A DNA stretch of 64,000 nucleotides from positions 2,581 to 66,580 of the IMG/VR virus record IMGVR_UViG_3300015050_000902; one strand, written 5' to 3'. A program made the position numbers and the translations under genes. The DNA is from a virus. The notes beneath the pieces are model-generated. The model ran no database searches. It saw only the letters and a program-made list of their open reading frames with translations, and was not told where the DNA came from. Position 1 is the first letter of the stretch, and each line of letters opens with the position of its first letter. Shown piece after piece: positions 2,221-61,350 of the stretch.

Positions 2221-2235
2221 TTACCGCCACGGTAA
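2221..2235. repeat. TTACCGYNRCGGTAA palindrome (intergenic)
   Basis: ttaccgccacggtaa. Confidence 0.9.
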
Positions 2236-2408
2236 CAAGGTGCCAATGAATGCCCCGCACTCGTGAAATCTTACAAGGTATGTCATATCGCGATCTAGAG
2301 GCATTCACCGGCCCCGATGACCACTGTGATCGATTGATCGAGTGGAAGGCAGGCAGCATCTCGGTGCTGAAGCATTACAAGCTAGACACCATAACGAGAG
2401 GAGCACAC

Positions 2409-2693
2409 ATGCAAAGACAGTTCACGATCGAGTTGCGGGTTGACTTCGCCGATCCGGAGAAGCTGCCCGAACTCAAGAAGGTGCTGCAGCAGGCTGCGCG
2501 TCATGCGTTCGCCACGGCACAGCTGATCAGCGACAATCCCAAGTCGACCCAGATCGCGATCTTCAGCGACGACTTCTTCTCTGGGCACGAGGAGATCAAG
2601 CTGCTCGACGACACCATTCAGAACGGCCTGGATGAGATCGGCGAGACCAGCGGCAGCGAGGGCATCTCCAGCGAGCTGGCGGGAGCAGTCTGA
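2409..2693 (+). CDS. Hypothetical acidic protein
   Basis: ATG 2409 with GAGGAG RBS; phage-like codon usage. Confidence 0.7.
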   Translation: MQRQFTIELRVDFADPEKLPELKKVLQQAARHAFATAQLISDNPKSTQIAIFSDDFFSGHEEIKLLDDTIQNGLDEIGETSGSEGISSELAGAV

Positions 2694-3040
2694 TGCCGCT
2701 GAGCCCGAAACAGGCCGGCGGCATTGCCAAGCGCAATCGTCTGGCGCGGATGACGCTGCAGGGGGCTGCACCAGCGCTCGGCTCCCTGCCAGCCAGCGTG
2801 TCCCCAATCGCGCCGCCGGCGACGCAAGGGGGCCCTACGCACGCCAATGTGCGCAAGCCCTCTGACCAGCGCTTCCGTTCGTTCTGCGAGCGGTATGCAG
2901 TGGCCAGGGCGCACCTGCTCACCAACGACCCGGCGAAGCTCCCCGAGGAGCAGTGGCTGATGGTGATGGACGCCAAGCGCTTCTATGCCATGATCGAGCG
3001 GGCCGGACAGAACATCCAGCCCGAGGACGGTGTGTTCTGA
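2693..3040 (+). CDS. Hypothetical protein
   Basis: TGATG coupling at both ends. Confidence 0.65.
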   Translation: MPLSPKQAGGIAKRNRLARMTLQGAAPALGSLPASVSPIAPPATQGGPTHANVRKPSDQRFRSFCERYAVARAHLLTNDPAKLPEEQWLMVMDAKRFYAMIERAGQNIQPEDGVF

Positions 3041-3243
3041 TGACGGAGTGCACGGGCAAACGATACTGGAGGAAACGCATCGATGAGTGTGTCGATCGCT
3101 GCCGTGAGCAGTATCGGTTGCGGCTGCACAATCTCTCCCCTAGGATGTCGAACAGGGACCTGCGAAGGTTCACGGCGTGGCATGACAAGCGCCTCTACTA
3201 CCTTCGCAAGGTCCGTGCCCGATGGGGCAAGAGCGCAGCATGA
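3040..3243 (+). CDS. Small basic protein, paralog family A
   Basis: Stop/start overlap; RI.EC..R...W..KRLYYL. Confidence 0.55.
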   Translation: MTECTGKRYWRKRIDECVDRCREQYRLRLHNLSPRMSNRDLRRFTAWHDKRLYYLRKVRARWGKSAA

Positions 3244-3566
3244 GCACCCGGCCATACGCAACACAGGGTGGACTGCGGATCAGGCAATGCTACAATCGCC
3301 GCCTGATCGAGTATCGGCAACGCTGCCGCGAGCTGGTTGACCGGCAGCGGCACCCGATCGGCGCCTGCAGCGCGGACTGGGACGCGTGGGTGCACTGGGT
3401 ACGCGATTGGGAGGCAGCATTGCTTTCCAACCGTGATCGACTGATCGAACAAGCTGAACAACGAGCAAAGGAGCAACGCAGTGAGCGCAAACGCAAATCC
3501 ATCGCCGCCAGTCGAGGAAGAAGAACTCGACTTGACGCCGATCGGGCTGACGCCAGCCCAGACTAG
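3240..3566 (+). CDS. Small basic protein, probable paralog family A
   Basis: ATGA overlap; RIRQCYNR motif. Confidence 0.5.
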   Translation: MSTRPYATQGGLRIRQCYNRRLIEYRQRCRELVDRQRHPIGACSADWDAWVHWVRDWEAALLSNRDRLIEQAEQRAKEQRSERKRKSIAASRGRRTRLDADRADASPD

Positions 3567-4794
3567 CCAGTGGCAGGACACCATGTCGCTCATGGCGTGG
3601 ACCTGTCCCGGCTTCCGCCACCTGTTCTACAAGCTGCTGGCCAACAACTCCGGCAGCTACGGAGCGGTGCCCACCAAGGGTGTCCCGGTCGCTGCGACCG
3701 ACGCCCGCAACATCCTGATCAACCCCGACACGTTCTTCCGCTACTCGCTGAAGGAGCGCGTGTTCATCATGGGGCACGAGGTGGTGCACAACGTCTATGG
3801 CGACGTCGAGTTCCTGAATGCCTGCGCCCGCTCCGGCAACGTGCCGCAGGACAACGGCCAGCCCGGCATCCCCTTCCGCGAGCAGACCATGCAGAAGGCG
3901 ATGGACTACCGCATCAATGCGCTGCTCGAAGAGAGCCGCATCGGCAGCGTGCCGAAGGATGCCTGCCTCGACAAGACCATCGCAACGGCCAACGAAGGCA
4001 TCTGCGATGTCTACAAGAAGGTCTATGAGGACGAAGAGAACGGCGGGCAGAAGACAGGCCCGCACAACCCCTTCGACGTCGTGCTCAAGCCGGGCAAGTC
4101 CAACAACACCCAGCAGCAGCCTCGCAACCCGCAGCAGTGGGCAGTCGAGATCGCGGCAGCGCAGGTGCTGGAGAGCATGAAGAACCAGGGCAAGGGGGCA
4201 GGGGCACTGGATCGCTTCTTCAACCAGCTCCTGAACCCCGTGGTGCCGTGGACCGAGCACATCCGCGGTATCTTCAACCGCAAGGTCGGCAGCGGCAGTT
4301 ACAACTGGCGCAAGCCTGACCGTCGCTTCATCGTGCGGGACCTCTACATGCCCTCCCGCTCCGGCAACGGCGCCGGCTGGGTGGTGTGCTGGGGCGACAC
4401 CTCAGGCTCCATCGGCGAGGATGAGATGTGCCGCTACCTCGCCGAACTGTCCTCCATCCTGGACGAGTGCAAGCCGCAGCGCATCACCATGGTGTGGTGC
4501 GACGACGAGATCGGTGTGCGGGATGACGGCAGCCCGACCATCGACGAGATCGAGGAAGCCATCGACCTCGAAACCATCAAGCACGCCGGTGTCAAGGGCG
4601 GTGGTGGCACGAGTGTCCACCCCGTGTTCGACTGGATCGCCCAGAGCACGGAGACACCCGAGGTGTTCATCGGGTTCACCGACGGCTATGTGGACTTCCC
4701 GCCGCAGGCACCGCCGATCCCGGTGATCATCTGGGCCATGACGACGGACAAGGACGCACCGTTCGGTGAGAACGTGCGGATCAACCCGAAGTGA
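3481..4794 (+). CDS. DUF2201-like metallopeptidase plus VWA domain protein
   Basis: HEVVH (HExxH), MIDAS DTSGS, GGGGT and FTDG motifs. Confidence 0.85.
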   Translation: MSANANPSPPVEEEELDLTPIGLTPAQTSQWQDTMSLMAWTCPGFRHLFYKLLANNSGSYGAVPTKGVPVAATDARNILINPDTFFRYSLKERVFIMGHEVVHNVYGDVEFLNACARSGNVPQDNGQPGIPFREQTMQKAMDYRINALLEESRIGSVPKDACLDKTIATANEGICDVYKKVYEDEENGGQKTGPHNPFDVVLKPGKSNNTQQQPRNPQQWAVEIAAAQVLESMKNQGKGAGALDRFFNQLLNPVVPWTEHIRGIFNRKVGSGSYNWRKPDRRFIVRDLYMPSRSGNGAGWVVCWGDTSGSIGEDEMCRYLAELSSILDECKPQRITMVWCDDEIGVRDDGSPTIDEIEEAIDLETIKHAGVKGGGGTSVHPVFDWIAQSTETPEVFIGFTDGYVDFPPQAPPIPVIIWAMTTDKDAPFGENVRINPK

Positions 4795-5465: not shown

Positions 5466-5748
5466 CGAGCGCATCCTGTGGTGCATGAAGCGGCACGTGG
5501 CGCGGGAGCACCAGATTTCGCGGGTCCAGGCGCCGCTGCGCATCTGGTTCCTGATGCGGATGGACTACCTGGAGCGCGAATACCTCGCCGCCATCAACGC
5601 CGCCGACAACATCATCGGCAAGCAGTGGCTTTTCGACCAGCGCCCGCGGTTTCGGCTGCGCTACTATAGTTCGGCGCAGAAGGCGCTGATCGACGCTTAC
5701 CGTGACGGTAATCCCCCCACCACAGCAGAGGAGATCAAAAATGGGTAG
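5446..5748 (+). CDS. Small protein, paralog family A
   Basis: CMKR...PLRIWFLMRMDYLEREY. Confidence 0.6.
   Translation: METMTTDERILWCMKRHVAREHQISRVQAPLRIWFLMRMDYLEREYLAAINAADNIIGKQWLFDQRPRFRLRYYSSAQKALIDAYRDGNPPTTAEEIKNG
5697..5711. repeat. TTACCGYNRCGGTAA palindrome (in CDS)
   Basis: ttaccgtgacggtaa. Confidence 0.9.
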
Positions 5749-6466
5749 ACGCAATACACGGCACGTGTCCTCCAACCCGGGCGAGCGTGCTTCGATCGGC
5801 GACAGCTACGTTGCCGAGGCAGTCAAGGCACTCAACACCACCTGTCAGAAGACAGTGACGGTGATGACGCACTGGCAGCAGACCCGGGAGGCCACACTGC
5901 CGATGCTGTTCAGCGATCGGGTCCTCGAAAAGATGCACGCGGTTCGTGGTCTGGTGGATCACCGCAGCGACAACATCAACTACGACATGGGCGACGGTGC
6001 GACGCTGACCATCAACTATCACGAGGCTCGCCTGCCGGCCATCAATGCCACCGCGCTCCGTCACGATCGCGCGATCACGGCAGCGGGGCTGTACGAACAC
6101 ATCGCCGCGATCAAGGCTGTCCACGACCGCTTCGAGGAGGTGAAGGGTGTGCTGCGCTGGTGCAACAAGCACTGCACCCCAGGGGCCATCAGGTACAACT
6201 TCCCCCAGGCACTGCAGCTCTGCCCGCAGGCGCCGGCCTTCCGGGACATGTCCGGTGTCCCGACCCGCCACGTCAACCCGTCGAACATCGGCGGCTGGGT
6301 GCAGCCGATCAAGGATGCGGCAGCGACACTGGCGCAGGCTGTGATGCTCCCCGATGACGTGAAGCCGCGCGACAAGGGCACAATGTGGTTGACATTCGCG
6401 TCGAAGACGATACATCTGGCGGTCGACGCATACTACGAAACGGACGTGATGACCTATAATTTTTAG
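5741..6466 (+). CDS. Hypothetical protein
   Basis: GAGGAG RBS, ATG 5741, 241 aa, ends 8 bp before the polymerase gene. Confidence 0.75.
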   Translation: MGRRNTRHVSSNPGERASIGDSYVAEAVKALNTTCQKTVTVMTHWQQTREATLPMLFSDRVLEKMHAVRGLVDHRSDNINYDMGDGATLTINYHEARLPAINATALRHDRAITAAGLYEHIAAIKAVHDRFEEVKGVLRWCNKHCTPGAIRYNFPQALQLCPQAPAFRDMSGVPTRHVNPSNIGGWVQPIKDAAATLAQAVMLPDDVKPRDKGTMWLTFASKTIHLAVDAYYETDVMTYNF

Positions 6467-6474: not shown

Positions 6475-8529
6475 ATGGCGCTCACTCCCCCCAAACCAAA
6501 ACAGCTGCTCTTCCTCGACTTTGAAACCTATTTCGATAGGGAGTACTCGTTGAGGAAGATGCCGACGCCCAACTACATTTTGGACCCCCGGTTCGAGATG
6601 CAGATGTGCGCCGTGAAGATCATGGACCTGACCCCAGTGGGTATGGCCACTGCAGCGCTGAGCGCGCGCTTCAACCCACACCCGCTGGACGAACACTTCA
6701 TCGTCGATGGCCCAGACTTCCAAGACTTCATTGCCACCATCGACCCCAGCACCACCACCACCGTCACCTTCAACGCTCTCTTCGACAACTCCATCCTCGC
6801 ATGGAAATACGGCTGGGTGCCGCACACCATGCTCGACGCGATGGGGATGGCCCGGGCTCTCCTAGGCCACGAACTGACCAGCTTCTCCCTCAAGAACGTC
6901 GCTGACTTCCTGCACCTGGGTGCGAAGGGCGGTGCCCTCGCCAACATGATGGGCAAGCGGCGTGCGCAGATCATCTCGGAAGGGCTCTGGCCCTCGTTCT
7001 GCCAGTACGCGCTGCAGGACAATCACCTGTGTGAGCAAATCTTCCTGCAGCTATACCCCCAATTCCCGTGGAGCGAGCGCCGGCTGATGGACATGGTCAT
7101 CCGCTGCTGTGTCGAACCCCGCTTCCTGGTCAACGTCCCCATGCTCACGCAGCATCTGGAGGACGTGCGGGCAGCCAAGGAGCAGCTGATCAGGGACGCC
7201 GACAATGTCGACCCCAAGATCATCATGTCCACCCCCAAGTTCAAGAAGGCATTGGAGGACCGCGGCGTAGAGGTGGAGATGAAAGTCTCTCCTACGACTG
7301 GCAAGGAGACCCCCTGCTTCGCCAAGACCGACGAGTTCATGGAGCTACTGCAGGATCATGCTGACCCCGTGGTGGCAGCTATGGCAGCGGCACGCATCGG
7401 GCTAAAGTCGACGCTGGAAGAGACACGCTCGGAGAAGCTCCTAAGCGTGGCCAATCAGGACTGGTCGACATGGCACAAACAGTATTCCTCGACCGCCGCT
7501 GACCCGGTCCCCAACTCCGCGCATTACATGCCGATCCCGCTGCGCTACGGTGCGGCACACACTCACCGGCTGGGCGGCGAGTGGGGCATGAACATGCAGA
7601 ACATGCCGACCGTGCGAGGGTCGAAAGGTAAAAGCAAGCTACGCCAGAGCCTCATCGTCGGCCCCGACCAGACTGTGGTGACGTGCGACTTGTCGCAGAT
7701 CGAGGCGCGGCTGGTGGCGTGGATTTGCGGCTGCACCCGGCTCGTCAATGAGTTCGCACAGAACCAAGACCCGTACAGCCTGCTCGCGACGGACATCTTC
7801 GGCAAGCCGATCAACCGCAAGCTGAAGGATGCCAACGGCAAGGTCATCTATGAGATCGAGGGCTTCATCGGCAAGACCGGCATTCTGGGGCTCGGCTACG
7901 GATGCGGCAAGGATAACTTCGACACCATGATCACGCGCTCGGCCCGCAGCATGGGGCTGGACATCTCGCAGGTCTATAACCGCGAGATCGGCGACCGTGG
8001 CGTGGACAGCTATCGCCGGCGCTACCACGAAATCCCGCGCGGCTGGCAAATCCTCGACCAGATGATCCGCACCTACTGGCTCTCTGGATCGAGCACCTGC
8101 AAGTTCGGCCCCTGCGAAATCTCCTACGGTAACGTGCTGCTCCCCTCGGGGCTCTCGCTGCGCTACGCGGAGCCCGGGACGCGCACCAACGATCAAGGCC
8201 GCACCGAATACGTTTACCGCTACGGTAAATTCTGGCACAAACTCTATGGCGCGAAATTCCTGGAGAACATTGTGCAGGCTCTCGCGCGTATCGTGGTGAT
8301 GAATGCAGCACTGCGCATCAGAGACAGAGGGCTCTACACGACGAACCCGCGCGACTATCGCTTCACGCTGCAGGCGCATGACGAACTCGTGTTCATTGTG
8401 CAGACATCGGAGCTTGACGCCGCCAAGAAAATTATCCTAGAGGAGATGCGACGGGTCCCGTCATGGGCACCGACCGCGCCGATTGACGCCGAGTTGGGTC
8501 AAGGCGCTTCATACGGAGAAGCCAAATGA
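6475..8529 (+). CDS. polA: DNA polymerase family A with N-terminal 3'-5' exonuclease
   Basis: Exo I DFET, motif A DLSQIEAR, motif B GKTGILGLGYG, motif C AHDELV. Confidence 0.95.
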   Translation: MALTPPKPKQLLFLDFETYFDREYSLRKMPTPNYILDPRFEMQMCAVKIMDLTPVGMATAALSARFNPHPLDEHFIVDGPDFQDFIATIDPSTTTTVTFNALFDNSILAWKYGWVPHTMLDAMGMARALLGHELTSFSLKNVADFLHLGAKGGALANMMGKRRAQIISEGLWPSFCQYALQDNHLCEQIFLQLYPQFPWSERRLMDMVIRCCVEPRFLVNVPMLTQHLEDVRAAKEQLIRDADNVDPKIIMSTPKFKKALEDRGVEVEMKVSPTTGKETPCFAKTDEFMELLQDHADPVVAAMAAARIGLKSTLEETRSEKLLSVANQDWSTWHKQYSSTAADPVPNSAHYMPIPLRYGAAHTHRLGGEWGMNMQNMPTVRGSKGKSKLRQSLIVGPDQTVVTCDLSQIEARLVAWICGCTRLVNEFAQNQDPYSLLATDIFGKPINRKLKDANGKVIYEIEGFIGKTGILGLGYGCGKDNFDTMITRSARSMGLDISQVYNREIGDRGVDSYRRRYHEIPRGWQILDQMIRTYWLSGSSTCKFGPCEISYGNVLLPSGLSLRYAEPGTRTNDQGRTEYVYRYGKFWHKLYGAKFLENIVQALARIVVMNAALRIRDRGLYTTNPRDYRFTLQAHDELVFIVQTSELDAAKKIILEEMRRVPSWAPTAPIDAELGQGASYGEAK
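8214..8228. repeat. TTACCGYNRCGGTAA palindrome (in polymerase CDS)
   Basis: ttaccgctacggtaa. Confidence 0.9.
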
Positions 8530-9439: not shown

Positions 9440-9454
9440 TTACCGCGACGGTAA
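9440..9454. repeat. TTACCGYNRCGGTAA palindrome (intergenic)
   Basis: ttaccgcgacggtaa. Confidence 0.9.
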
Positions 9455-9885: not shown

Positions 9886-10376
9886 AGACGATGCGGCTGA
9901 TGATCGACGACGCCCCGGTCAAAGACGTCAAGGTGGCGCTCGCGAAGGAGCACCACGACCGTGAGCAGACGATCCGCGCGCTCATGGCAAAGGGGCGCTG
10001 CAGCGTGGTGCAGGACAACTGCGCCACCCACATCACCGTGCGCGTGGACACCGAGCACTTCACAGACATCCGCGAGAAATTCCCCACCACCATCCTGATG
10101 GCGAACATCCAGCTGGCCCTCGCTGCCGGGCTGGACGACAGGAACCGGAAGGGTGACCCGTACGACGAGATGTCCAACCACCTGCACGATGCGATGGCCT
10201 ACGGTATCCAGTCCGTCTACCGGGGTGGCCGCAGCGTCGGCAAGTCAGAGGTTCTGGCGATGGGCTACGACGCCCCGGTCTGGACGGACTTCGCGCTGGG
10301 CGACTACCTCTACAACGCCGAGCCGGCGGTTACCGTCACGGTAAAGCAGAAATTCAAAAAGGGGCTACGGCCATGA
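9882..10376 (+). CDS. Hypothetical protein with terminase-like motif fragments
   Basis: GTGA overlap; NHLHDAMAYG and GGRSVGKS segments. Confidence 0.65.
   Translation: MKTMRLMIDDAPVKDVKVALAKEHHDREQTIRALMAKGRCSVVQDNCATHITVRVDTEHFTDIREKFPTTILMANIQLALAAGLDDRNRKGDPYDEMSNHLHDAMAYGIQSVYRGGRSVGKSEVLAMGYDAPVWTDFALGDYLYNAEPAVTVTVKQKFKKGLRP
10330..10344. repeat. TTACCGYNRCGGTAA palindrome (in CDS)
   Basis: ttaccgtcacggtaa. Confidence 0.9.
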
Positions 10377-11792: not shown

Positions 11793-12278
11793 ATGGCGCT
11801 AGAGGACCTGCTGCGGGAAGCAGCCACGCGAGGGATCACGCATCTCTCGCTCTCACCGACGCCGAGCGAGGACGGCAAGCGTACCTACTGGCAGGCGCGA
11901 GCCACGCCCTCGACCGAGCACAAATACGTCATGTGCGCCTGCGAGGACCCGGTAGATGCCGTGACGCAGGTGCTGGCCGCGATGGCGAAGGCGCCGAAGC
12001 GCTCCCGCAAGCCCGAGCCGCATCTCGTGCAGAGCCCGGCCAACGCCCTCTACGGGACGATGGCGGCGATCGCCGAGCGGCAGGGGCTCAGCGAAGAGTT
12101 TACCGCCGCGGTAACCGAGCCGCGCCAAACGTTCACCGTGCCGGACGGCTTCACGGCTGCCAGGGACGACGAAGGCCGGGCCACCGGCGAGCTAGTCAAG
12201 ACCGCTCCGGAGCCGGTCGCTTCAGCAGCTCCGCTCAACCTCGAAGAGGAATTTGCTTCATGGCTCCCGAAACCGTAG
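11793..12278 (+). CDS. Hypothetical protein
   Basis: 161-aa ORF coupled to neighbours. Confidence 0.65.
   Translation: MALEDLLREAATRGITHLSLSPTPSEDGKRTYWQARATPSTEHKYVMCACEDPVDAVTQVLAAMAKAPKRSRKPEPHLVQSPANALYGTMAAIAERQGLSEEFTAAVTEPRQTFTVPDGFTAARDDEGRATGELVKTAPEPVASAAPLNLEEEFASWLPKP
12100..12114. repeat. TTACCGYNRCGGTAA palindrome (in CDS)
   Basis: ttaccgccgcggtaa. Confidence 0.9.
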
Positions 12279-13295: not shown

Positions 13296-13347
13296 CGTCC
13301 TGAGCCGGGCGCGCGTGGCGACGATCAACGAATTACTGCGGCGGTAA
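13132..13347 (+). CDS. Small basic hypothetical protein
   Basis: GGAG upstream; overlaps the VRR-NUC tail; HLENHPND.LS motif. Confidence 0.45.
   Translation: MARQDQAETTPSIPVYEQRKHKGHKNNTCANGSLHKRMTRQLAGIMAHLENHPNDVLSRARVATINELLRR
13333..13347. repeat. Palindrome variant (1 mismatch)
   Basis: ttactgcggcggtaa. Confidence 0.7.
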
Positions 13348-14092: not shown

Positions 14093-15660
14093 CCAACGTC
14101 AAAATCTCCCGCAAATTTCAGAAGCTGATCGTGCCGGCCGATGGTAGAGCAGAAGCGCTGTTCCCGTCAGGCGTGCCGATCCCACCCACGGCAGACGATC
14201 CGTGCCCATACCTGATGATCGACCACGAGCTGCGCCACACCATCATGCTGCGCTCGCTGGGCTACCACGTGCCGAACCCGATGCTCTGCTACTACGACTG
14301 GGCCGGTGGCAAGCCGTTCGCCGTGCAGCGCCGCACCGTCGACCTGATGACCACGACCGCGCGCTGCTACGTCCTCAACTCGATGGGCACCGGCAAGACG
14401 AAGGCGACCCTCTGGGCGTGGGATTACCTTCACGGTAACGGCTTTTGCGGCAAGCTGCTCGTCGTCGCGACCCTCTCGACGCTGCGGTTCGTGTGGCAGA
14501 GCGAGGCGTTCCGCACCCTGCCGACGCGCAAGGTGGAAGTGCTGCATGGGACCAAGAAGCAGCGCCTCGAACGTTTGGCCGCGGACGCCGACATCTATGT
14601 GATCAACCACGACGGGCTCCGCACCATCATGCCGGAGCTTCTCGCTCGGACCGACATCGACGTGCTGTGCCTCGACGAAGTCGCGGTATACCGCAATAGC
14701 TCCGATCGGTCCAAGGACATGCGCAAGTTCCAGCAGCGCTTCAAGATCGTGTGGGGCTTGACCGGGCGCCCGATGCCCAACGAGCCAACAGACGTGTGGG
14801 GCATCTCGAAGGTGGTCACCCCCAACACCTCACCGAAGTATTTCCGGCAGGCGCAGGAAATGCTGATGACGAAGATCAACCAGTTCAAGTGGGTGCCGAA
14901 GCCCGAGGCCATCGAGCGCGCCATGGCGATGCTGCAGCCGAACGTCCGGTTCGATCTGGATGCGGTGGTGGAGCTGCCCGAGGTGATCTCACGCACGATC
15001 GACGTGCCGCTCACCTCGATGCAGTCGAAGGTCTACACGACGCTGGCGAAGGAGTTCACTGCCGAGGTCGGCAACGGGCACGTCACCGCGGTCAACGCTG
15101 CGGTCGCGATGGGCAAGCTGCTCCAGGTGTCAGGCGGCTGGGTCTACGCCAACCCGCTGGGCGCGGTGCCGGTGTTCAAGGTGGACGAGCCGATGCCACG
15201 GCATCAGATGCTGATCGACCTGATCAACGAGAACGAGCGCAAGGTGATTGTCTACGTCCCCTATCGCCACGCCATCGACGGGCTCGCCGAAGTCCTCACC
15301 AAGGCGGAGATAGAGTTCGCCGTGGTGCATGGTGAAGTCTCCGGGCGCGGCGACATCTTCAACGCCTTCCAGAACACCGACAAGTACAAGGTGCTGCTGG
15401 CGCACCCGCAGTGCGTTGCCCACGGGCTCACGCTGACAGCGGCGGATACCATCATCTGGTACCTCCCGATCACATCACTGGAAATTTACGAGCAGGCGAA
15501 CGCCCGCATCACTCGCGTCGGGCAGAAGCACAAGCAAAAGGTGCTGCACCTGCAGTCGACGCCGGTGGAGAAGAAAATCTACTCGCTGCTGCAGCGGAAA
15601 CAGAAAGTTCAGGACACGCTGCTGCAGCTGCTGGCAGAGGCTACCGAAGCGAAGCAGTGA
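14089..15660 (+). CDS. SNF2-like superfamily 2 helicase
   Basis: MGTGKT, LDE, LTGRP.PN, HGLTLTAA, QANARITRVGQ. Confidence 0.92.
   Translation: MTNVKISRKFQKLIVPADGRAEALFPSGVPIPPTADDPCPYLMIDHELRHTIMLRSLGYHVPNPMLCYYDWAGGKPFAVQRRTVDLMTTTARCYVLNSMGTGKTKATLWAWDYLHGNGFCGKLLVVATLSTLRFVWQSEAFRTLPTRKVEVLHGTKKQRLERLAADADIYVINHDGLRTIMPELLARTDIDVLCLDEVAVYRNSSDRSKDMRKFQQRFKIVWGLTGRPMPNEPTDVWGISKVVTPNTSPKYFRQAQEMLMTKINQFKWVPKPEAIERAMAMLQPNVRFDLDAVVELPEVISRTIDVPLTSMQSKVYTTLAKEFTAEVGNGHVTAVNAAVAMGKLLQVSGGWVYANPLGAVPVFKVDEPMPRHQMLIDLINENERKVIVYVPYRHAIDGLAEVLTKAEIEFAVVHGEVSGRGDIFNAFQNTDKYKVLLAHPQCVAHGLTLTAADTIIWYLPITSLEIYEQANARITRVGQKHKQKVLHLQSTPVEKKIYSLLQRKQKVQDTLLQLLAEATEAKQ
14424..14438. repeat. Palindrome variant (1 mismatch, in helicase CDS)
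   Basis: ttaccttcacggtaa. Confidence 0.7.
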
Positions 15661-16182: not shown

Positions 16183-16197
16183 TTACCGTCGCGGTAA
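16183..16197. repeat. TTACCGYNRCGGTAA palindrome (intergenic)
   Basis: ttaccgtcgcggtaa. Confidence 0.9.
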
Positions 16198-16227: not shown

Positions 16228-17415
16228 ATGTCACAAGACTTGATGAACGTCTCCGCGTTCAAGGGCCTCGCGCCCGCTGCGGCATTCGCTGCCGCTCTCG
16301 ACCCACACGCTGAAAGCCTTGCCGATGGCATCGGCAGTTCGTACGGCATCGTCGGCTACAAGGGCAAGGTGTGGAGCCTCCGCTTGCGCGGTGAGACCCA
16401 CATGTTCGTCCGCCCCGATGACGGCTCGCCGGCGGCGTTCCTCGACGTGATCGTGCTGCGCTCGCCGGGCTACAAGTCGAAGAGCTTCTATCCCCCGGGG
16501 ACGTTTCAGGATGGTCAGATCGGCACGCGGCCGACCTGCGCTGCGCTCAACGGCGTGACGCCCGACGCGGACATCGCGGAGCCCCAGAGCAACGCCTGCG
16601 CCACCTGCCCGAAGAACGTGTTCAAGCTGAACGCCGAGGGCCGCAAGACCCGGGACTGCTCCGACTACAAGCGCCTCGCTGTGCTGATCCTGCCGTCGAT
16701 GACGAAGGCTCTGCTCGGTGCGCCGCTGATGGAGCCCGTGTTCCTGCGCGTGCCGGCGGCCTCGCTCAACGACCTCGCCCTGCTCGGTGAGGGCATGTCG
16801 GCGCAGGGCTTCCACTACTCGTCCTACATCACCCGCATCGGGTTCAACCCCGAGAAGCCGCACCCGCAGATGACGTTCCGGGCTCTGCAGCCGTTGACCG
16901 ATCGGGAAGCCCCGCTCGTGCTGCCGCTGCGCGAGGACCAGACCGCCATCCGGATCACGGGCGAGAACGAGACCGCGCCGGTTCGTCCGGCCGGCCAGAC
17001 GATCGCTCCCCAGGAGAACGCCGAGGACAACGCTGCTGCTGCGGCGGCTCAGGCTGCTGCGGCTGCTGCGGCTGCTGCGGCTGCTCAGGCCGCCAAGGAC
17101 AAGGCCGCCAAGGCTGCTGCGGCGAAGGCGGCGAAGGAAGCTGCTGCTGCTGCGAAGGCTGCTGCTGACGCTGCTGCGGCCGCCGCGAACACGGTGGACA
17201 CTGGCTTCGGGGACCTGGGCGGGGAAGTTACCGTCGCGGTAAAGCCCCCGGCGCCGGCGGCTGGGACGGTCGACACTGGCTTCGACGCCGGCGAGCCGAA
17301 CCCGGCCCATACGGCAGGGGCGGCGAGCCCCGGACCCGATGTGAGCGATACGGGGCAGGCTGAGGACGCCGACCTCGATCTCGACGCGCGAGTGGCCGCT
17401 CTCCTGCCGAAGTGA
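16228..17415 (+). CDS. Putative ssDNA-binding/annealing protein with Zn-binding cysteines and Ala-rich/acidic tail
   Basis: P.C...G..PD...C..CP.N...C..KRLAV, LRVPAASL; Ala/Lys linker; acidic C-terminus; between helicase and primase. Confidence 0.65.
   Translation: MSQDLMNVSAFKGLAPAAAFAAALDPHAESLADGIGSSYGIVGYKGKVWSLRLRGETHMFVRPDDGSPAAFLDVIVLRSPGYKSKSFYPPGTFQDGQIGTRPTCAALNGVTPDADIAEPQSNACATCPKNVFKLNAEGRKTRDCSDYKRLAVLILPSMTKALLGAPLMEPVFLRVPAASLNDLALLGEGMSAQGFHYSSYITRIGFNPEKPHPQMTFRALQPLTDREAPLVLPLREDQTAIRITGENETAPVRPAGQTIAPQENAEDNAAAAAAQAAAAAAAAAAAQAAKDKAAKAAAAKAAKEAAAAAKAAADAAAAAANTVDTGFGDLGGEVTVAVKPPAPAAGTVDTGFDAGEPNPAHTAGAASPGPDVSDTGQAEDADLDLDARVAALLPK
17228..17242. repeat. TTACCGYNRCGGTAA palindrome (in CDS)
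   Basis: ttaccgtcgcggtaa. Confidence 0.9.
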
Positions 17416-17419: not shown

Positions 17420-20400
17420 ATGACCGACTGGAATGCCTCACAGGCCTTCATGGCCCATGTCGTACCGTGGCCGACGTCCCCTCAGGACGTCGGCTACGTC
17501 AACCTGCATTTCAGCAGCGTCGACAGGAAGGATGCGACCAAGCTCTACAAGGGCGGCGGCTGGCCATTCCGCAGTGTCGAACAGTTCATCACCCGAGCCA
17601 AATGGGTGACCACCACCACGCAGTTCAAGGACGTCTGGTTCTGCACCTCGCTGCAGCGTCTGACGAAACCCAATACTCGCAACCCGGCAAAGCCACATGC
17701 TCACCGGCTGGCTGCGAACGCGGTCTCGCTCAAGGCGATCTGGATCGACCTCGACGTCAACCGGCCGGGCGAAACCAACCCCAAGAAATATGCCTCGCTT
17801 GAGGAAGCCCTCAAGACCATTTTCCAGTTCCGCTCCCGCGTCGGGCTGCCGGCGTTCAGCGCGCTCGTATCGAGCGGCGGCGGGCTCCATGTCTACTGGA
17901 TCAGCAAGACGGCGATGAAGCCCTCCGAGTGGGCACCGTTCGCCAGCGGCCTCAAGGCGCTGCTGATCAAGGAGGGAGTGAAGTGCGATGCGGGTCTGAC
18001 CACAGATGCGGCACGCATCCTGCGCGTCCCCGGCACCTTCAACCATAAAGATACGCCGCCCTCGCCGGTCTCGCTGCTCAACATCCCACTGGCGCTCTAC
18101 GACTTCGAGGACAAGCTGGCGTCCCTCAAGGAGTTCGCCACGCCCATCGCTGCAGCCAAGGTAGCAGCACCGGCGCACGAGTTGTTCGTGAATGCCGCTG
18201 CGTTCCAAGGTGTCAAGCCCGCATGGACGGTGGAAGGCCCCGACCTCGATGCAGGGATCGACAAGCAAGCAGAGTTCAAGGTCGACCCCAAGCCAATCTT
18301 CCAGCAGTGCGGGTTCTATCGTGACGCGCTGCTCACCGGCGGCAAGGATCATGACCAGCCGCTCTGGAACCTTGCCGTGCTCGGCACAACCTGGATGGAG
18401 AAGGGCGATGAGATCGCACACGCTGTTTCTAAAGCGCACCCGGGCTATTCCCCGGAGGCTACACAGGCGCTCTACGATCGCAAGGTGGCTGAGCGAACAG
18501 ATGGCGACATTGGATACCCCAGCTGTTCAACCTTTGCAGGCAATGGCAGCAGCGCATGCGCGACGTGCCCGCTCTTCGCAAAAGGCAAGTCACCGCTCAA
18601 TGTGAGGCCGGCTGTTACCGCCGCGGTAAACGGCCCGGCGCTCAACATGGCGACGCCGCTCAACCAGACGCCCCAGGCGAAGGCGCTGTGCCTGCCCGAG
18701 GGCTACGACCTCGACGACGACGGCTACATCTGTAAAGTCAATGAGGTTATCATCGGGGGCGAGACGATGCCTCCGGTGATGCTTCGCCTGTTCCACTCCA
18801 AGCTCACGGACCCGTGGGCGCAGAGCGATCCGGACAGCATCAACTTCAAAACGACCCGCGACAAAGGTCGACCACCGTACGACGCCTCGATCCGTCATGA
18901 GGACATGGGGGGCATGGGGCTTGATAAGATTTTCGCGCGGCAACATGTGAAAATCTACCCTGACAACAAGCGGTTTTTGGAGCACTTCATCGTGTCATGG
19001 CTGGCAAAACTCCACGAGATGCAGGCGGCGCAGCAGTCGCTGCCGTTCGGCTGGTATAAGGAGGCCGGCGCCTATCGAGGCTTCGTCTACGGCGGCCAGC
19101 TGATGAAGGACGACGGCACCGAGCAGCCGTGCGGCGTCGGCGATCCGAAGCTGCGACAGATTTTCCACCCCACCGGCGACCTGCAGCACTGGTTCGACGC
19201 GGCCAAGATCATCACCCAGCAGCGCCGGCCCGAGCTGGACGCCATCATCGCCCTGTCATTCGCCGCGCCCCTCACCGCGCTGATCGGCAAGAACTCCGTG
19301 ACGCTGTGCGCCTATGGCGAGAGCGGCGTCGGCAAGAGCGCTGCCTATTCAGTCGGCGTCGGCGTGTGGGGTCACAGCAAGAAGGGCAAGGCGGTCTCGC
19401 ACTCGACGTTCAACGGCGTGATGCGCAAGATGGGCGAGCTGGCCAACCTGCCGCTCTACTGGGACGAGATCAAGGACCCGAAGGCCCAGGGTGCCGCCTA
19501 CGACTTCATCTACAATGCGTCGGACGGCGTTGAGAAGGACCGCATGGTCGACGGCAAGTCGATGCAGGATCGCGGCACGTGGCAGACCCTCATGATGATG
19601 GCGGCGAACATATCGTTCATCGACTTCGTCGCGTCCAAGGATCGGAGCCACGTCGCCGGCGTCAGTCGCGTGCTGGAGTACAACGTCAAGCGCGCTGTGA
19701 ACCCGGTCGGCCGCATCAGCCAGACCGACGCGGACGTGATCATCGACAAGCTGATGTACAGCTACGGCCAGATGGGCATGCTCTACGCGAAGCTGCTGGC
19801 CATGAACCACGCCGCGATCAAGCAGGAAGCGATCGACACCTGCAAGCAGGTTGAGGCTGACCTTAACGTCACCGAGGAAGAGCGGCTCTGGGTCGCGCTG
19901 GTCGGCACGCTGCTAACCGGCGCGCGGCTGGCCAACCAGCTGGGCACGGACATCGATCTGCCGGCGCTCAAGACGTTCCTCTACGAGGTGCTCCGCGAGA
20001 ACCGCGAGAAGCGCAACACCATGAACCTCAGCGGCACTGGTGACAGCACCGAGGACATCATGACCGGCTACTTCGCCAAGGTGCAGGCCTCCGATCAGGC
20101 GCTGTGGACTTACGGGATGCCAATGGGCGCCGGCAAGCCACCGCCAGTGCTGGTGCTGAAACAGCCGAGCGACATGCGCAACGTCCAGGTGACCACCAAC
20201 GTCGCCGTCCGCTGGGATACCGAGAACGCCACCTGCTACATTCTGCACGAGCACCTCAAGGCCTACCTCGACGAGAACGGCAAGGGCACCTCGACCGTGA
20301 TGAAGTACCTCAAGGACCACTATGGCATGACGATCGAGCGGCGGATCAGCATCGGCGCCGGCACGCTGTTCACCGGCCGCGCGCGGTGCTGCGTGTTCCG

Positions 20401-49243: not shown

Positions 49244-49254
49244 GTGCGTTCCCC

Positions 49255-56514: not shown

Positions 56515-57171
56515 TTATCCGTCCGGGAGTAGCGCGCGACCGACAGCAGGTTGAGGAGGTAGACTTTGAGGCGCATTTGCCGTGACGGTAATTTTCTGGT
56601 CTGCGCCAAGGTCAATGTTAATAGAGAAGCGTTCGCCTGGAGCAGCCGCGCCGTCTTTTCGCTCACCAACGTCGGCGATTTTTGCAAAGAGCTTAGCAGC
56701 TTCGATGACGCCTGGGAGCCCTTCGCCCTTGTTCTGCATACGCGCGCCGAGACCGAGTAGACTGTCTTCGAGGATAGCGGCGGCCTCGACTTTAATTCTA
56801 TCTTGAGTTGATAGTGGGGCGTGCCACTCTTTGCAGGCGGCGGCGAACGTTTCGCGGAAGAAGTCGTTGTGGACCTTGAGGAACTCGAACTGCGCGTTGT
56901 CAAGTTTGAACTCCTTGAGGATGACCGCCTCTTCCTTGATGTCCATCGCCAGCTCGCGGGCCAGCTTCGCCAGCTCGGGCCATGTCAGCGCCGGCAGCTG
57001 GACGAGCGCCTTCGCCGCCTGAACGCCAGCAGGCGTCAACCCCCCAGGAGGGAGAGCTTCGGGTTCAGGCGGCGCTGGGTCCGGAATTACCGTGGCGGTA
57101 ACAGGCCCGTCGGGGTCATAGACCTCGCCGGCGAGCACGTCGCCAAAGCCTGTGTCGATGATCTCGGTCAA
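56515..57171 (-). CDS. terS: Putative terminase small subunit
   Basis: TTG start overlapping the upstream TGA; helical protein with C-terminal FSINIDLG strand, upstream of terL. Confidence 0.6.
   Translation of the reverse strand: MTEIIDTGFGDVLAGEVYDPDGPVTATVIPDPAPPEPEALPPGGLTPAGVQAAKALVQLPALTWPELAKLARELAMDIKEEAVILKEFKLDNAQFEFLKVHNDFFRETFAAACKEWHAPLSTQDRIKVEAAAILEDSLLGLGARMQNKGEGLPGVIEAAKLFAKIADVGERKDGAAAPGERFSINIDLGADQKITVTANAPQSLPPQPAVGRALLPDG
56577..56591. repeat. Palindrome variant (1 mismatch, in CDS)
   Basis: ttgccgtgacggtaa. Confidence 0.7.
57087..57101. repeat. TTACCGYNRCGGTAA palindrome (in CDS)
   Basis: ttaccgtggcggtaa. Confidence 0.9.
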
Positions 57172-57539
57172 TGGACTTTGTCCTTGCTGGTCGGACACTG
57201 CCGCAGCTGCTGCACGAGCGAGGCGACTTCCTGGGCCTGCTTCTGGACCAGCGCGGTGATCCCCTCGCGCGCCTTGTCGAACGCGTTCTGGTCGAGCACG
57301 CCGTTGATGTAGACCTGATTGATGTTGTTGAGCAGCCAGAGCTTGGCGCACTGCGCATAGAGCCCTACGCAGGCCGCGGCCGCGCCGGTGAACTGGTCGC
57401 GCACGACGCTGCGGTCGTAGACATCCGCGAGCGCCTGGACGGCGCCGGCCTGGGTCGCTTCGATGAACTCGGTGCTGCCGTCGGCGGGAGCGCTGAGCAG
57501 GCGCAGGATGAAGTCTTCGTCGAGCACGGGGTCAGACAT
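57168..57539 (-). CDS. Hypothetical protein
   Basis: 123-aa coupled ORF. Confidence 0.6.
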   Translation of the reverse strand: MSDPVLDEDFILRLLSAPADGSTEFIEATQAGAVQALADVYDRSVVRDQFTGAAAACVGLYAQCAKLWLLNNINQVYINGVLDQNAFDKAREGITALVQKQAQEVASLVQQLRQCPTSKDKVH

Positions 57540-58098
57540 TGGCGGGGTCCGCGCTGCTGGAGAGAAGCCCGATCGCGATGTCGCGGGAGCGGGCGGAGAT
57601 CAGATAGCCGAGCCCCCACATGGTCTCGATGTGAATGTCGTGGGGCTTGAGCTTCTTGCGCAGCTTGCAGATCATGACGTCGACCATCTTGACGTCGGTC
57701 TCGTCGCGCGCGGGATCGCCGGGCCGGTTCTGTTCGATGACGTGGTGGAGTTGTTGCTTGGTGACTTCGTTCCGCTTCAGCATCGCGGCGAGCATGACAG
57801 CTTCGAGCGGCGAGCATTTGAAGAAGCGGGCACAGGCGCATTTGAGGGCGTTGTCATCTTCGAGCGGTGAGCCGTTGAAGGGACTGCGCTGGTGTCGCGT
57901 TGTGCCGGGTGGCCAGTCGTCCTTCGGCAGTTCGAGGATGGTACCGGCCTGGACTGCTTCCTTGAAGAGTTCGTATAGGTCAGCTGAGGGGATGTGCAGC
58001 GATCGAGCGATGGCGCGTACTGGGATGCCTTCGTCAGCGAGGCGGACGGCGATGGCGGTGGGGGATGGGGCGGGCTCGACGGCTGCGATCGCGTTCAT
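57532..58098 (-). CDS. Transcription regulator: N-terminal HTH plus CtrA-like OmpR/PhoB winged helix, no receiver domain
   Basis: KMVDVMICKLRKKL...HIETMWGLGY resembles the CtrA DNA-binding segment (KIIDVFICKLRKKL...IETVWGRGY, from memory). Confidence 0.85.
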   Translation of the reverse strand: MNAIAAVEPAPSPTAIAVRLADEGIPVRAIARSLHIPSADLYELFKEAVQAGTILELPKDDWPPGTTRHQRSPFNGSPLEDDNALKCACARFFKCSPLEAVMLAAMLKRNEVTKQQLHHVIEQNRPGDPARDETDVKMVDVMICKLRKKLKPHDIHIETMWGLGYLISARSRDIAIGLLSSSADPANV

Positions 58099-59394: not shown

Positions 59395-59409
59395 TTACCG
59401 TGGCGGTAA
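59395..59409. repeat. TTACCGYNRCGGTAA palindrome (intergenic)
   Basis: ttaccgtggcggtaa. Confidence 0.9.
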
Positions 59410-59608: not shown

Positions 59609-59782
59609 TTAGATGGTGGCGTTCAGGCTCACCTTGACGTCACCGAAACCGGTGAAGCCTGACGTGGTGGCAAGCACTTTCGTCTTGCCCGACTTGGAGG
59701 GCTGCGCCTGCTCCTTGGCCTTCGCGCTGATGTCGATGGTCAGAACCAGCGTATCGCCCTTGATCTCGCCTTTGACGTTCAT
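59609..59782 (-). CDS. 57-aa beta-rich basic protein, possibly nucleic-acid binding (below ORF-track cutoff)
   Basis: MNVKGEIKGDTLVLTID...PSKSGKTKVLATT.G; GAGGAG RBS; followed by a GC hairpin at 59578-59601. Confidence 0.7.
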   Translation of the reverse strand: MNVKGEIKGDTLVLTIDISAKAKEQAQPSKSGKTKVLATTSGFTGFGDVKVSLNATI

Positions 59783-59959
59783 GGTACACTCCTCAGTGTG
59801 GCGTCGAACCGGGATGGTCGACTGCCCTCGCCGCGTCGGGCAAACGGCGCCGATCGGCCCCTTCGGGGCAACGCGCGTTCTTCACATCCGGGCGCGCGAG
59901 GGGCTCGCAAGGTGCAAGGGTGGGCCTGCCCAGGCAGGAGAGTTCGCTCCTAATCCCGT

Positions 59960-60560
59960 TTGAAGGTATCAAGGTAGTACCTTGCTATGCGTGGTTCGCA
60001 TGGCTATGTGGTAATTAGGTAGCGACGTTTACCCTTTGTTTAATACCCAAGGCTACTGGCGCCGGACCAATTGCGTGCCAGTTAACTGGTCAATTCTTGG
60101 ACCGATTTAACCTTTTGATCTTGCAAGAGAATTGGGTTAATTGGTCAATTGGCACGCTTTTTCACGGGGTGTGGTGGACTATGAGACGTCATTCTAATAA
60201 ACCCTTAACGCGGGGAGCGCATGGGTCGTTCGGCAGGCTAATTGGCCTATTGGCAAGAAAACAAGGTAAACACTATAGATTTAAAATTTGCGTCGAAAAA
60301 ACATAGACATAAATTGACCAAACCAGCGTTTACCCTTTTTAAAGATGACGTCCACGTTAAGGGTTTGTTTAAATGACGTTTCATGTGGGGTACCCCGAAA
60401 AAGGCGTGCCAATTGGACCAATTAGACCAATTACATTTTTGCAACACCTGTCGAGCGGCCTCCAGCCACAGCAATTCTGCCGGCCCTCAAGCCGTTCATC
60501 TTGTATACCACAAATCGTGGACCAATTAGATTGAGCGTGCCAATTACACGAACGCAGCGT
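59960..60560. promoter_or_regulatory. AT-rich divergent control region, candidate origin or genome end
   Basis: Most AT-rich long stretch; imperfect inverted repeat 60131-60212 / 60353-60432; CCAATT iterations; CtrA-like boxes at 60029, 60194, 60357. Confidence 0.65.
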
Positions 60561-60826
60561 GAACGATCACGGCGACGTTATCAGCGAGGCGCTGCCTTCG
60601 CAGCGCCGGAACTCCGTGTGTCTGCCACCAGATCGTATCCGGTCCAGGCCGGCAGGACTGCCTCCTAAGCGCAGGCTTTGCCGATGTTGGCTGCCGATGT
60701 TCCCACCACCCGCGGGCGATGGCTCTGCGCGCGCGAGGGCCGCCCGACGCGGCGATTGCGGGCCGCGCCCCGTTCCACTACAGGACGGCGTGTTTGAGCC
60801 CGATCAGGTTGCTGAGGAGCACCACA

Positions 60827-61066
60827 ATGACGTCATTCACCAGAGCACTCTACCGCCGCGATCCAGCTGCAGCTGAGGCGTTCCATCGTCAACGCACGTT
60901 CGAGCAGCAGTCTGCACACGGCAGGCCCGGCACGCTGAGCAAGACTGTCGGCTTCGGCAGGCGAACGCCCACCGGCGTCGTGGGCTGCGCCACGCTGTGC
61001 GACCACCCGGGCTGTGCGCAGGGCTGCACCCTCGCTGGCCGTCGTGAAGCGTTCCTCTGGGAGTGA
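60827..61066 (+). CDS. Small Cys-containing early protein
   Basis: CTGAGGAG RBS; C...C.HPGC...C. Confidence 0.55.
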   Translation: MTSFTRALYRRDPAAAEAFHRQRTFEQQSAHGRPGTLSKTVGFGRRTPTGVVGCATLCDHPGCAQGCTLAGRREAFLWE

Positions 61067-61350
61067 GCACGATGCGCACCGGGTTCCAACAGGTTACCGC
61101 CACGGTAACACCAGCCAAACGACCCAAATGGTCGTTCAATGTGCTGGCGGTCGTGCGCAGCCTCGAAGGTACCAAGGTGGAGGTGTTCGATGACTACACC
61201 TTCGCCCAGCGCTGGACACAAGCGTTCGGCGGCGGCACTGTCTGGCCGCGGGACGTTGTGGCCGACTACACCTCGACCAGCGTGACGCTGAAGAGCGGCA
61301 TCGAGATGGTCGAGCCCACGATCGAGCCCTACCAGCTCGAACTGATCTGA
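61063..61350 (+). CDS. Early protein ending in QLELI
   Basis: GTGA overlap; 95 aa. Confidence 0.6.
   Translation: MSTMRTGFQQVTATVTPAKRPKWSFNVLAVVRSLEGTKVEVFDDYTFAQRWTQAFGGGTVWPRDVVADYTSTSVTLKSGIEMVEPTIEPYQLELI
61094..61108. repeat. TTACCGYNRCGGTAA palindrome (in CDS)
   Basis: gttaccgccacggtaac. Confidence 0.9.

Follow-up and report, generated by a model that had tools for sequence, protein, structure and literature searches.

A lineage-specific dispersed palindrome under DNA-level selection in a phage genome and its relatives, best read as an array of docking sites

In the genome of a phage known from a 66,580-bp IMG/VR record (IMGVR_UViG_3300015050_000902, here called G000), of which the window analysed comprises the 64,000 nucleotides from base 2581 to base 66580, a 15-bp palindrome, TTACCGYNRCGGTAA, recurs on average about every 3.5 kb, genes included. 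We found that this array is real and strongly selected, that the selection acts at the level of the DNA, that the motif is lineage-specific and that its sites occupy conserved positions in related phages; the trait is family-wide, each lineage carrying its own version of the motif. The array is best read as a set of docking sites. With a probability of roughly 0.55, we take the sites to be duplex docking sites of a phage-encoded, dimeric, sequence-specific DNA-binding protein that acts on the whole chromosome; we infer the dimer on double-stranded DNA, its being encoded by the phage and the functional role from the observations set out below.

The palindrome in the window

An earlier note on this DNA had listed 18 exact copies and three copies with one mismatch (at 13333, 14424 and 56577). 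All of these are present at the positions it gave (Table 1), a one-mismatch search of the whole window found none beyond the 21, and a 19th exact copy lies outside the window, at genome position 1843 of the record. The arms are invariant in all 19 exact sites, TTACCG(Y)-N-(R)CGGTAA, and the centre is variable; it reads Y-N-R in 19 of 19 sites, as had been stated, and in 106 of 108 sites across seven genomes. Around the G000 sites no sequence conservation was found outside the 15 bp.

The copy number is well beyond chance. In this genome with a GC content of 63%, the exact motif was absent from 100 dinucleotide shuffles, a relaxed pattern occurred in them with a mean of 0.05 and a maximum of 1, and the reversed pattern has no copies in G000. 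A codon-preserving shuffle had been named beforehand as a control: 500 synonymous-codon shuffles of the called genes gave a mean of 0.068 copies (maximum 2) against 13 in-gene copies observed. These 13 are among the 18 exact copies in the window, the other five being intergenic; with the one-mismatch copies included, 15 of the 21 lie inside genes by our own gene calls, so that most copies are indeed in genes while the earlier count of 16 is not reproduced. The peptides that result were correctly described as VT[AV][AT]V and YRxG[KN], often with the rare codon GTA: all ten [FLIV]T[AV][TA]V[IMTNKSR] peptides in the proteome and all three xYRxG[KN] peptides are written as the motif, and 10 of the 56 GTA codons, which make up 4% of the Val codons, fall in motifs.

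Conservation and motif variants in relatives

Five IMG/VR relatives, in which 17-58% of G000 is covered at 71-73% nucleotide identity, carry 21, 12, 18, 16 and 7 copies of the motif. When the G000 sites were projected through blastn alignments (blocks of 64-75% identity, 30 alignable site-genome pairs), all 12 arm bases were kept in 23 of the 30 pairs, four pairs had one mismatch and three had lost the site; the chance survival of 12 arm bases at about 70% identity is roughly 1% (0.7 to the 12th power). The central triplet varies among the relatives within Y-N-R.

Another important finding was that orthologous genes keep the site, for instance the primase gene at residue 401 (G001-G005) and the gene of the family A DNA polymerase PolA (G001-G004), and that in relative G006, which has TTACGG arms, the same sites are changed through synonymous codons. 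The primase peptide V-T-A-T-V is written GTT ACC GCC ACG GTA in the TTACCG phages and GTT ACG GCC ACC GTA in G006, and the PolA peptide YRYGK, whose codons form the site in five TTACCG genomes, has the synonymous spelling TAT CGG TAC GGC AAG in G006. Similarly, one variable loop of the PD-(D/E)XK nuclease accommodates three palindromes with three peptides in G006, G007 and G008, and the junction before the 395-amino-acid (aa) SSB-like gene carries the lineage's own motif in G001, G002, G004, G007 and G008. The suggestion that selection acts on the DNA rather than on the protein is thus borne out by the 23 of 30 intact arms, by the synonymous switching and erasing in G006 and by the codon shuffles.

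At least eight motif variants occur among the relatives, in arrays of 12 to 37 sites per ~57-68-kb genome. The cultured Rhizobium phage RHph_TM3_14A (host Rhizobium etli) has 26 copies of TTACC-N6-GGTAA, mostly in the form TTACCT-N4-AGGTAA, and eight of TTACC-N5-GGTAA (34 in total), and TTACCT-N4-AGGTAA is also the motif of G010 (37 copies). TTACGG-N3-CCGTAA occurs in 19 copies in G006, GTTACAG-N3/4-CTGTAAC in 18 in G009, TTGATCC-N2-GGATCAA in 18 in G007, TGTTCC-N1/2-GGAACA in 26 in G008 and TTACCG-N3 in 18 in G015. Loci centred on PolA added TTACTG-N3, TTACT-N6 and CTTACC-N6, and within one PolA clade TTACCG, TTACGG and TTACTG all occur. That close relatives have different half-sites fits a phage reader that co-evolves with its sites. 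As a separate observation, the G007 motif holds two GATC words, so that Dam-type GATC methylation would mark every site.

Two complete relatives, G011 and G012, showed no dispersed palindrome in several scans. An excess of CTCGAG in G011 was rejected as a site array, being a Leu-Glu codon pair, and an excess of CCGG-N5-CCGG (48-91 copies) in G012, G013 and G014, with repeated 10-mers such as CCGGTCGGGC, was attributed to collagen-like G-X-Y repeat genes and not to an array.

Position and symmetry of the sites

The sites are over-represented between genes: in six genomes 36 of 93 lie outside called genes, against 11.4% non-coding DNA (P = 9.5e-12). Many of the intergenic sites start 1-3 nt after a stop codon and have their centre 21-38 nt before the next start, and other sites lie deep within long genes, at conserved positions. 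In G000 the early/replication arm has 1 site per 2.4 kb, the tail/ejection genes have 1 per 3.9 kb, and 11.8 kb of head and packaging genes hold no site; the gaps in the array that had been noticed before (36.8-44.6 kb and 44.6-57.1 kb) are real. Within 1-20 kb, sigma-70-like promoters and intrinsic terminators show no excess, and no listed match overlaps a site, on which grounds a promoter or terminator role was rejected. The lack of a link to promoters makes it most likely that the protein works on the entire phage chromosome.

The inner positions of the sites were examined for symmetry and for pairing. Of the 108 TTACCG-type sites, 106 have Y at position 7 and R at position 9, yet these two bases are Watson-Crick partners in just 32 of the 108. 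In G010 the half-site has T, C or G at position 6 in 58, 13 and 1 cases and Y at position 7 in 70 of 72; a pair between positions 6 and 11 is lacking in 12 of 36 sites of G010 and in 13 of 26 of RHph_TM3_14A. The sites of G007 and G008 are palindromic right through the centre. Such degeneracy of the inner half-site positions without covariation of a stem is as expected of two identical protein subunits on duplex DNA, and the symmetric degenerate positions back the earlier step from dyad symmetry to a dimeric DNA-binding reader.

In the mechanism that we propose, a dimeric phage protein would dock on the double-stranded sites, each half-site being TTACCGY, and would co-evolve with them, so that the array would be rewritten in concert when the specificity shifts. 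The array would be an old, position-stable network, denser in the early/replication arm, with its sites squeezed into the gaps between stop codon and ribosome-binding site or into tolerant peptide loops. Its likeliest role would be to block or time transcription elongation in a stoperator-like manner, and a second possible role would be to mark or organise the phage DNA.

The five-gene early block

The best genomic correlate of the array is a block of five early genes, encoding a 235-aa helical protein, a gp24-like MoxR ATPase, a small acidic protein, a gp25-like VWA-metallopeptidase (the DUF2201 protein) and a 241-aa protein, which we regard as a lead to the neighbourhood of the reader and not as its identification. 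The ATPase and the DUF2201 protein occur in all 12 motif-bearing genomes and in neither of the motif-less genomes G011 and G012, profile level included, and these two are also without the 235-aa, small acidic and 241-aa proteins. In a tree of seven proteins G011 pairs with the motif-bearing G015 (support 99) and G012 with G013 and G014 (support 100); G011 and G012 are therefore not sisters and represent two independent lineages without the array. Related contigs number several hundred, with 383 homologues of the ATPase and 165 relatives of PolA. We also examined 80 PolA-centred loci, 61 of which had enough upstream DNA to be tabulated. Where the module is present, 43 loci have a palindrome array and 6 have none; where it is absent, 2 have other repeats (not of the TTAC type) and 10 have no array (Fisher P = 4.7e-6 over the 61 loci, not corrected for phylogeny). 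The rows without the module represent four separate clades. One IMG/VR locus without the module (L251) has five copies of a palindrome of the type TAGGACA-N3-TGTCCTA (AGGAC-N5-GTCCT) in 18 kb, which may be an independent array in a module-less lineage.

The AlphaFold2 (AF2) model of the ATPase (predicted local distance difference test, pLDDT, 87.7) had NorQ, McrB and CbbQ as top Foldseek matches. The protein keeps its Walker A and B motifs, and its partner has an invariant HExxH and the MIDAS motif DxSGS. The pair corresponds to gp24 and gp25 of N4-like phages (L403 10876-13111, L404 18803-21053), tblastn matches fall in genes annotated as gp25 and metallopeptidase in Schitoviridae, the DUF2201 protein alone has matches in 492 phage records, mostly Schitoviridae, and sequence searches of the PDB with the two proteins returned nothing meaningful. 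For the 235-aa protein (AF2 pLDDT 81.9) no Pfam match was found, VIA-wide matches comprised only a C-terminal helical hairpin (Z <= 6.7), and the ESM Atlas returned unnamed viral clusters and a match of 0.81 to a phiC31-repressor cluster, below the threshold for a lead; for the 241-aa protein the ESM Atlas returned none.

It could be argued that the gp24-like ATPase and the gp25-like VWA-metallopeptidase, or another protein of the block, are themselves the machine that uses the sites, by loading at them or by remodelling or removing a site-bound protein. We consider this improbable. Within the family the block is present wherever a TTAC-type array is and absent where it is not, four separate clades lack the module, both enzymes look active from their motifs, and in G006, with its switched motif, the 235-aa protein changes more rapidly than its neighbours: 11 of 43 columns that are otherwise invariant differ in it, compared with 5-7% in the ATPase, the VWA protein and PolA. 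However, the ATPase is by its fold a NorQ/CbbQ-type protein remodeller without a DNA-binding domain, the pair is found in 492 phage records that are mostly N4-like, two of which showed no dispersed palindrome when scanned, the mycobacteriophage Corndog has an array without DUF2201_N, and 6 of the 49 module-bearing loci are without a clear array. Passages of Iyer et al. (2021, PMC7824862) propose a role in virion assembly for such pairs.

A more elaborate and somewhat less probable idea, which we offer as speculation, is that the array is a self barcode, bound every 2-4 kb by a reader from the early block (the best guess being the 235-aa protein) that would be stripped or cleaved on time by the MoxR ATPase and the VWA-metallopeptidase, as a timer or protection system that diversifies between competing relatives. 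If true, this would give the widespread N4 gp24/gp25 pair its first function.

Candidate readers

The earlier note had proposed four candidates for the reader: a winged helix-turn-helix (wHTH) protein, a 57-aa protein, TerS and a host factor. The CtrA-like wHTH protein (57532-58098) carries the sole recognised DNA-binding domain among the proteins scanned (Trans_reg_C; phrog_31800), and is found in G001, G003, G004, G006, G009 and G015. Its distribution nevertheless does not follow the motif: it is present in all of G011-G015, the motif-less G011 and G012 included, and absent by tblastn and PF00486 from the motif-bearing G010, G007, G008 and RHph_TM3_14A. In five genomes no site lies within 400 bp of the gene, and its identity to the G000 protein is 57% in the motif-switched G006 against 61-63% in relatives with the same motif, a drop no larger than that of other genes. 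On this phyletic pattern the wHTH protein was rejected, and we hold it to be a most improbable reader. The 57-aa protein (59609-59782) was likewise dropped, being present in just 3 of the 14 relatives searched. The TerS-like protein (56515-57171) is still a possible reader, but motif-less relatives have it as well. A double-HTH protein of RHph_TM3_14A (24216-24767) was put aside since it has no similarity to the 183-aa protein of G000.

A host protein, for instance a nucleoid, cell-cycle or defence factor, might read the sites instead, in which case the motif would track the host and not a phage gene. The lack of an identified phage reader would be explained, changes of motif could follow host switches, and the motif has the outline TTA-N9-TAA of the CtrA box, the likely hosts being alphaproteobacteria (the closest cultured relatives infect Rhizobium). 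The CtrA box has the consensus TTAA-N7-TTAA; the phage motif is TTAC-N7-GTAA, and canonical boxes occur just twice in G000 and 0-6 times in its relatives. Only 50 of 401 alphaproteobacterial genomes, a sample outside which the true host may lie, contained any copy of the phage motif, with a maximum of three per genome, with similar numbers for the reversed control and with centres that are not Y-N-R. Three further genomes had 3, 1 and 5 copies against 4, 3 and 6 in the control, and a scan for the exact word in 596 Gb of genomes gave scattered single matches across phyla. The different half-sites in close relatives, and the loss of the array together with phage genes in two independent lineages, argue against a host reader as well, so that a host factor with a genome-wide code is very unlikely. 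Two side observations concern metagenome-assembled genomes (MAGs). An alphaproteobacterial MAG, G018, has two exact copies of TTACCGCCACGGTAA 1.4 kb apart (C10:111582-112973), and MAG G016 has three TTACCG-type copies on the small contigs C164, C212 and C528; these may be phage DNA binned with that of the host and as such a lead to the host.

Duplex site or hairpin

Several points weigh against a phage-encoded dimer on duplex sites. The reader protein was not found: among roughly 50 window proteins scanned, only the wHTH protein has a Pfam DNA-binding domain, and a test for specificity-determining positions singled out no protein (in the primase, with only six same-motif rows available, 12 columns differed in both G006 and L206 where 6.1 were expected). 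The 235-aa protein has no informative fold match (none in Foldseek at E <= 0.001). Beyond the family, a dyad-repeat array is neither predicted by the block nor dependent on it: no dispersed palindrome is seen in 33 and 41 kb of the two N4-like phages that have gp24/gp25, and Corndog has its dyad repeats without the DUF2201_N protein. The association with the block may reflect no more than wholesale replacement of the early region. Moreover, our gene calls come from a home-made codon-bias caller. The remaining points concern the form of the site. The spacing of the half-sites varies by 1 bp within genomes (N5/N6 in RHph_TM3_14A, N1/N2 in G008, N3/N4 in G009), which a hairpin would accommodate more readily than a rigid dimer; the virion RNA polymerase (RNAP) promoters of phage N4 are hairpins with the same 6+3 geometry (6-bp stem, 3-nt loop), and gp24/gp25 are common to the present phage and the N4-like phages; and the centre base of intergenic sites is C in 24 and G in 12 cases on the sense strand (P = 0.065; the sites are not independent), a weak polarity that is unexpected for a purely symmetric site.

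The alternative to which these last points lead is that single-stranded DNA or RNA folds at the sites into hairpins (stem of 5-7 bp, loop of 3-4 nt), serving in N4-style extruded promoters or priming, or as signals for RNA processing, stability or translation that are read by a phage factor. A stem-loop fits all variants (6+3 for TTACCG-YNR, 6+4 for TTACCT-N4, 5+3 or 5+4 for TGTTCC), and besides the 1-nt spacing variation and the weak sense-strand polarity, the many intergenic sites between a stop codon and the next ribosome-binding site and the replication module held in common with N4-like phages are in line with it. A sequence-specific hairpin is always a DNA palindrome, and the arms alone cannot discriminate between the two forms. 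The inner positions are another matter: the dyad-symmetric preferences next to the loop and in its centre cannot pair, the non-conserved positions at the stem edge do not covary (C..A and A..A pairs occur), and G-U wobble on the sense strand is not favoured (one of the three one-mismatch copies). In addition, conserved sites lie deep inside long genes, the sites are not confined to the early region, and no T7- or N4-like RNAP was detected, although the PF00940 search that was silent in G000 was silent in control genomes too; the 1778-aa virion protein had no sequence match in the PDB (phmmer). Hairpins are therefore a possible but clearly less likely explanation, and judged by these patterns in the sites duplex docking would appear to be favoured by about three to one.

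Genes of the phage

The genome of G000, whose record ends overlap by 123 bp, consists of a plus-strand arm encoding a MoxR-type ATPase, the DUF2201 metallopeptidase-VWA protein, a family A DNA polymerase, a PD-(D/E)XK nuclease, an SNF2 helicase and a DUF927 primase-helicase, and a minus-strand arm encoding an SU10-like portal, TerL, a lysin-bearing 1778-aa virion protein and internal virion proteins. No close match to G000 was found in the phage collection; by TerL its nearest cultured phages are the Rhizobium phages RHph_TM3_14A, TM27A, TM27B and TM29 (49.5% identity). Given the gp24/gp25-like pair and the N4-like replication module, yet no detected phage RNAP, the phage may be an RNAP-less relative of the Schitoviridae. 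The sites and the genes most relevant to them are listed in Table 1.

Table 1. Copies of the palindrome in the window and selected genes (window coordinates; ORF, open reading frame)
Feature	Coordinates	Strand	Context and remarks
Exact site	2221..2235		Intergenic, between the genes of the MoxR ATPase and the small acidic protein; conserved in G001 and G002
Exact site	5697..5711		Near 3' end of 100-aa ORF (A-Y-R-D-G-N); next start 37 nt on
Exact site	8214..8228		PolA gene, aa 583 (Y-R-Y-G-K); intact in G001-G004; synonymously erased in TTACGG-type G006
Exact site	9440..9454		Intergenic, 3' of MazZ-like gene
Exact site	10330..10344		3' end of 164-aa ORF (V-T-V-T-V-K)
Exact site	12100..12114		161-aa ORF (F-T-A-A-V-T)
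One-mismatch site	13333..13347		TTACTG arm
One-mismatch site	14424..14438		SNF2 helicase gene, aa 115 (D-Y-L-H-G-N); relaxed site at same position in G001 and RHph_TM3_14A
Exact site	16183..16197		Intergenic; begins 2 nt past stop codon, 31 nt before start of 395-aa SSB-like gene
Exact site	17228..17242		395-aa gene (V-T-V-A-V-K)
Exact site	18615..18629		DUF927 primase-helicase gene, aa 401 (V-T-A-A-V-N); same position in G001-G005; TTACGG arms in G006 via Thr codon swaps
Exact site	21793..21807		Intergenic, between two minus-strand late genes
Exact site	24721..24735		Gene of 1778-aa virion lysin/ejection protein (N-Y-R-S-G-N)
Exact site	28201..28215		549-aa late gene
Exact site	32533..32547		124-aa late gene; lost in G003 and G004
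Exact site	36827..36841		3' end of 241-aa late gene
Exact site	44572..44586		84-aa head-module gene; sole site in about 20 kb of head genes; intact in G001-G004
One-mismatch site	56577..56591		TerS-like gene
Exact site	57087..57101		TerS-like 218-aa gene; orthologue carries the lineage's own motif in G001, G003, G004 and G006
Exact site	59395..59409		Intergenic, 35 nt before start of minus-strand gene
Exact site	61094..61108		5' end of 92-aa early ORF
MoxR-class AAA+ ATPase (N4 gp24-like)	957..2129	+	phrog_1297; AF2 pLDDT 87.7; Foldseek
Small acidic protein between ATPase and VWA protein	2409..2693	+	Start uncertain: 2250 or 2409
DUF2201_N metallopeptidase and VWA protein (N4 gp25-like)	3481..4794	+	Pfam PF13203, PF09967; invariant HExxH and MIDAS
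241-aa protein, fold unassigned	5741..6466	+	Last gene of the block absent from motif-less relatives
wHTH (Trans_reg_C) protein	57532..58098	-	Pfam; phrog_31800; candidate reader of the earlier note
TerS-like protein	56515-57171		

We also observed several other genes of interest. Nmad5 (157-879), DUF4406 (8526-8987) and the N-terminal domain of a MazZ-like dATP/dGTP diphosphohydrolase (8977-9426) form a set that may point to an altered nucleotide pool or altered DNA bases in the phage. An Rv2179c-like 3'-5' exoribonuclease domain is encoded at 12260-12829 (E = 6e-30), and the C-terminus of a small early protein (63552-63989) carries a short motif of family A polymerases (residues 121-139; Pfam DNA_pol_A, E = 9e-4). 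The 395-aa core protein (16228-17415), for which no Pfam or PHROG match was found, is rich in Cys in its N-terminal half, contains a long Ala-rich stretch of low complexity and two copies of a VDTGF motif, has an acidic tail, and by these features looks like an SSB-type hub protein. Genes for a glycosyltransferase (GT2, Pfam) and a methyltransferase lie between portal and scaffold (window 45423-50871); in Cluster O phages, as described in part of PMC4351075, methyltransferase and glycosyltransferase genes lie between portal and protease.

Significance

A few phage groups have been known since 2015 or earlier to carry dispersed dyad repeats. No description of the present motif was found in the literature searched (supplements being outside the search), none was found under the name RHph_TM3_14A, and PMC13611946 makes no mention of palindromes. 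New are the concerted switching of the motif at conserved positions and the natural loss lineages tied to a defined gene block, the four clades without array and block serving as natural controls; the cultured members of the family (the Rhizobium phages RHph_TM3_14A, TM27A, TM27B and TM29) make the question testable. The synonymous codon swaps that switch or erase sites are an unusually clean proof of selection at the DNA level, and imply that a phage coding sequence can hold a second, lineage-specific code whose strength suffices to fix rare codons and entire peptides, which is relevant for gene annotation, for the analysis of codon usage and for the engineering of such phages.

Comparison with known systems

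Bacterial replicons are organised by dispersed 12-16-bp palindromes read by dimers, such as the matS/MatP, parS/ParB, SlmA and Noc arrays. The G000 array differs from these in sequence and in its far higher density (1 per 2-4 kb), and is not found in the 401 bacterial genomes searched; the proteins scanned, which do not include all ORFs, gave no match to a MatP, ParB, SlmA or Noc domain. The N4 virion-RNAP promoters are short inverted repeats with a 5-7-bp stem and a 3-nt loop, few in number, located upstream of early genes and used by a giant virion RNAP. The 6+3 stem-loop geometry of the G000 sites is alike, but the sites are genome-wide, with 19 across all modules and 13 in genes. Repressor c of phiC31 reads conserved inverted repeats in many dispersed copies, one phage protein serving intergenic operators in a temperate phage; the dispersed inverted repeat is shared with G000, in which no match to Phage_Repressor_c was found. 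More generally, Pfam or PHROG scans of roughly 50 proteins, a set that does not cover every ORF, yielded no domain of a repressor, an integrase or a partition system (parAB).

The distribution of the sites had been likened to that of mycobacteriophage stoperators, and in dispersal the resemblance is clear. According to parts of Mavrich and Hatfull (2019, PMC6550527) and of PMC9283540, Cluster A stoperators comprise 20-30 dispersed sites, mostly off promoters, that act on elongation and not on initiation, and their consensus differs between subclusters and co-varies with the cognate repressor. Genome-wide dispersal, independence of promoters and a lineage-specific consensus are thus common to both. 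Stoperators are, as described in the same parts of these papers, asymmetric 13-bp sites that are oriented with transcription and bound by a monomeric repressor in temperate phages with an immunity repressor, whereas the G000 sites are dyad-symmetric.

The closest known case is that of the 17-bp dyad repeats of the Cluster O mycobacteriophages, TGTTCGG-N3-CCGAACA, with invariant arms and a variable 3-bp centre (Cresawn et al. 2015, PMC4351075, from which the following details are taken in part). Corndog has 34 of them in a ~70-kb genome, about one-third in coding regions and denser at one genome end; they have no link with promoters, the phage shows no evident sign of being temperate, their function is given as unknown, and the authors predicted a dimeric DNA-binding protein. 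Our palindrome scan, with Corndog as positive control, recovered these repeats. They differ from the present array in belonging to an unrelated phage lineage (actinophage siphovirus) with an unrelated host, and in Corndog in the lack of DUF2201_N; the comparison there was between five near-identical genomes, and motif switching, positional conservation and synonymous rewriting are not shown in the parts concerned. The two arrays represent a descriptive class, that of Cluster O-type dyad repeats, and not a homology family. Within this class the likeness is close: both have inverted arms of 6-7 bp, a short variable centre and tens of copies in intergenic and intragenic positions, and just as the Cluster O repeats are independent of promoters, the promoter-like matches listed for 1-20 kb of G000 include none at a site.

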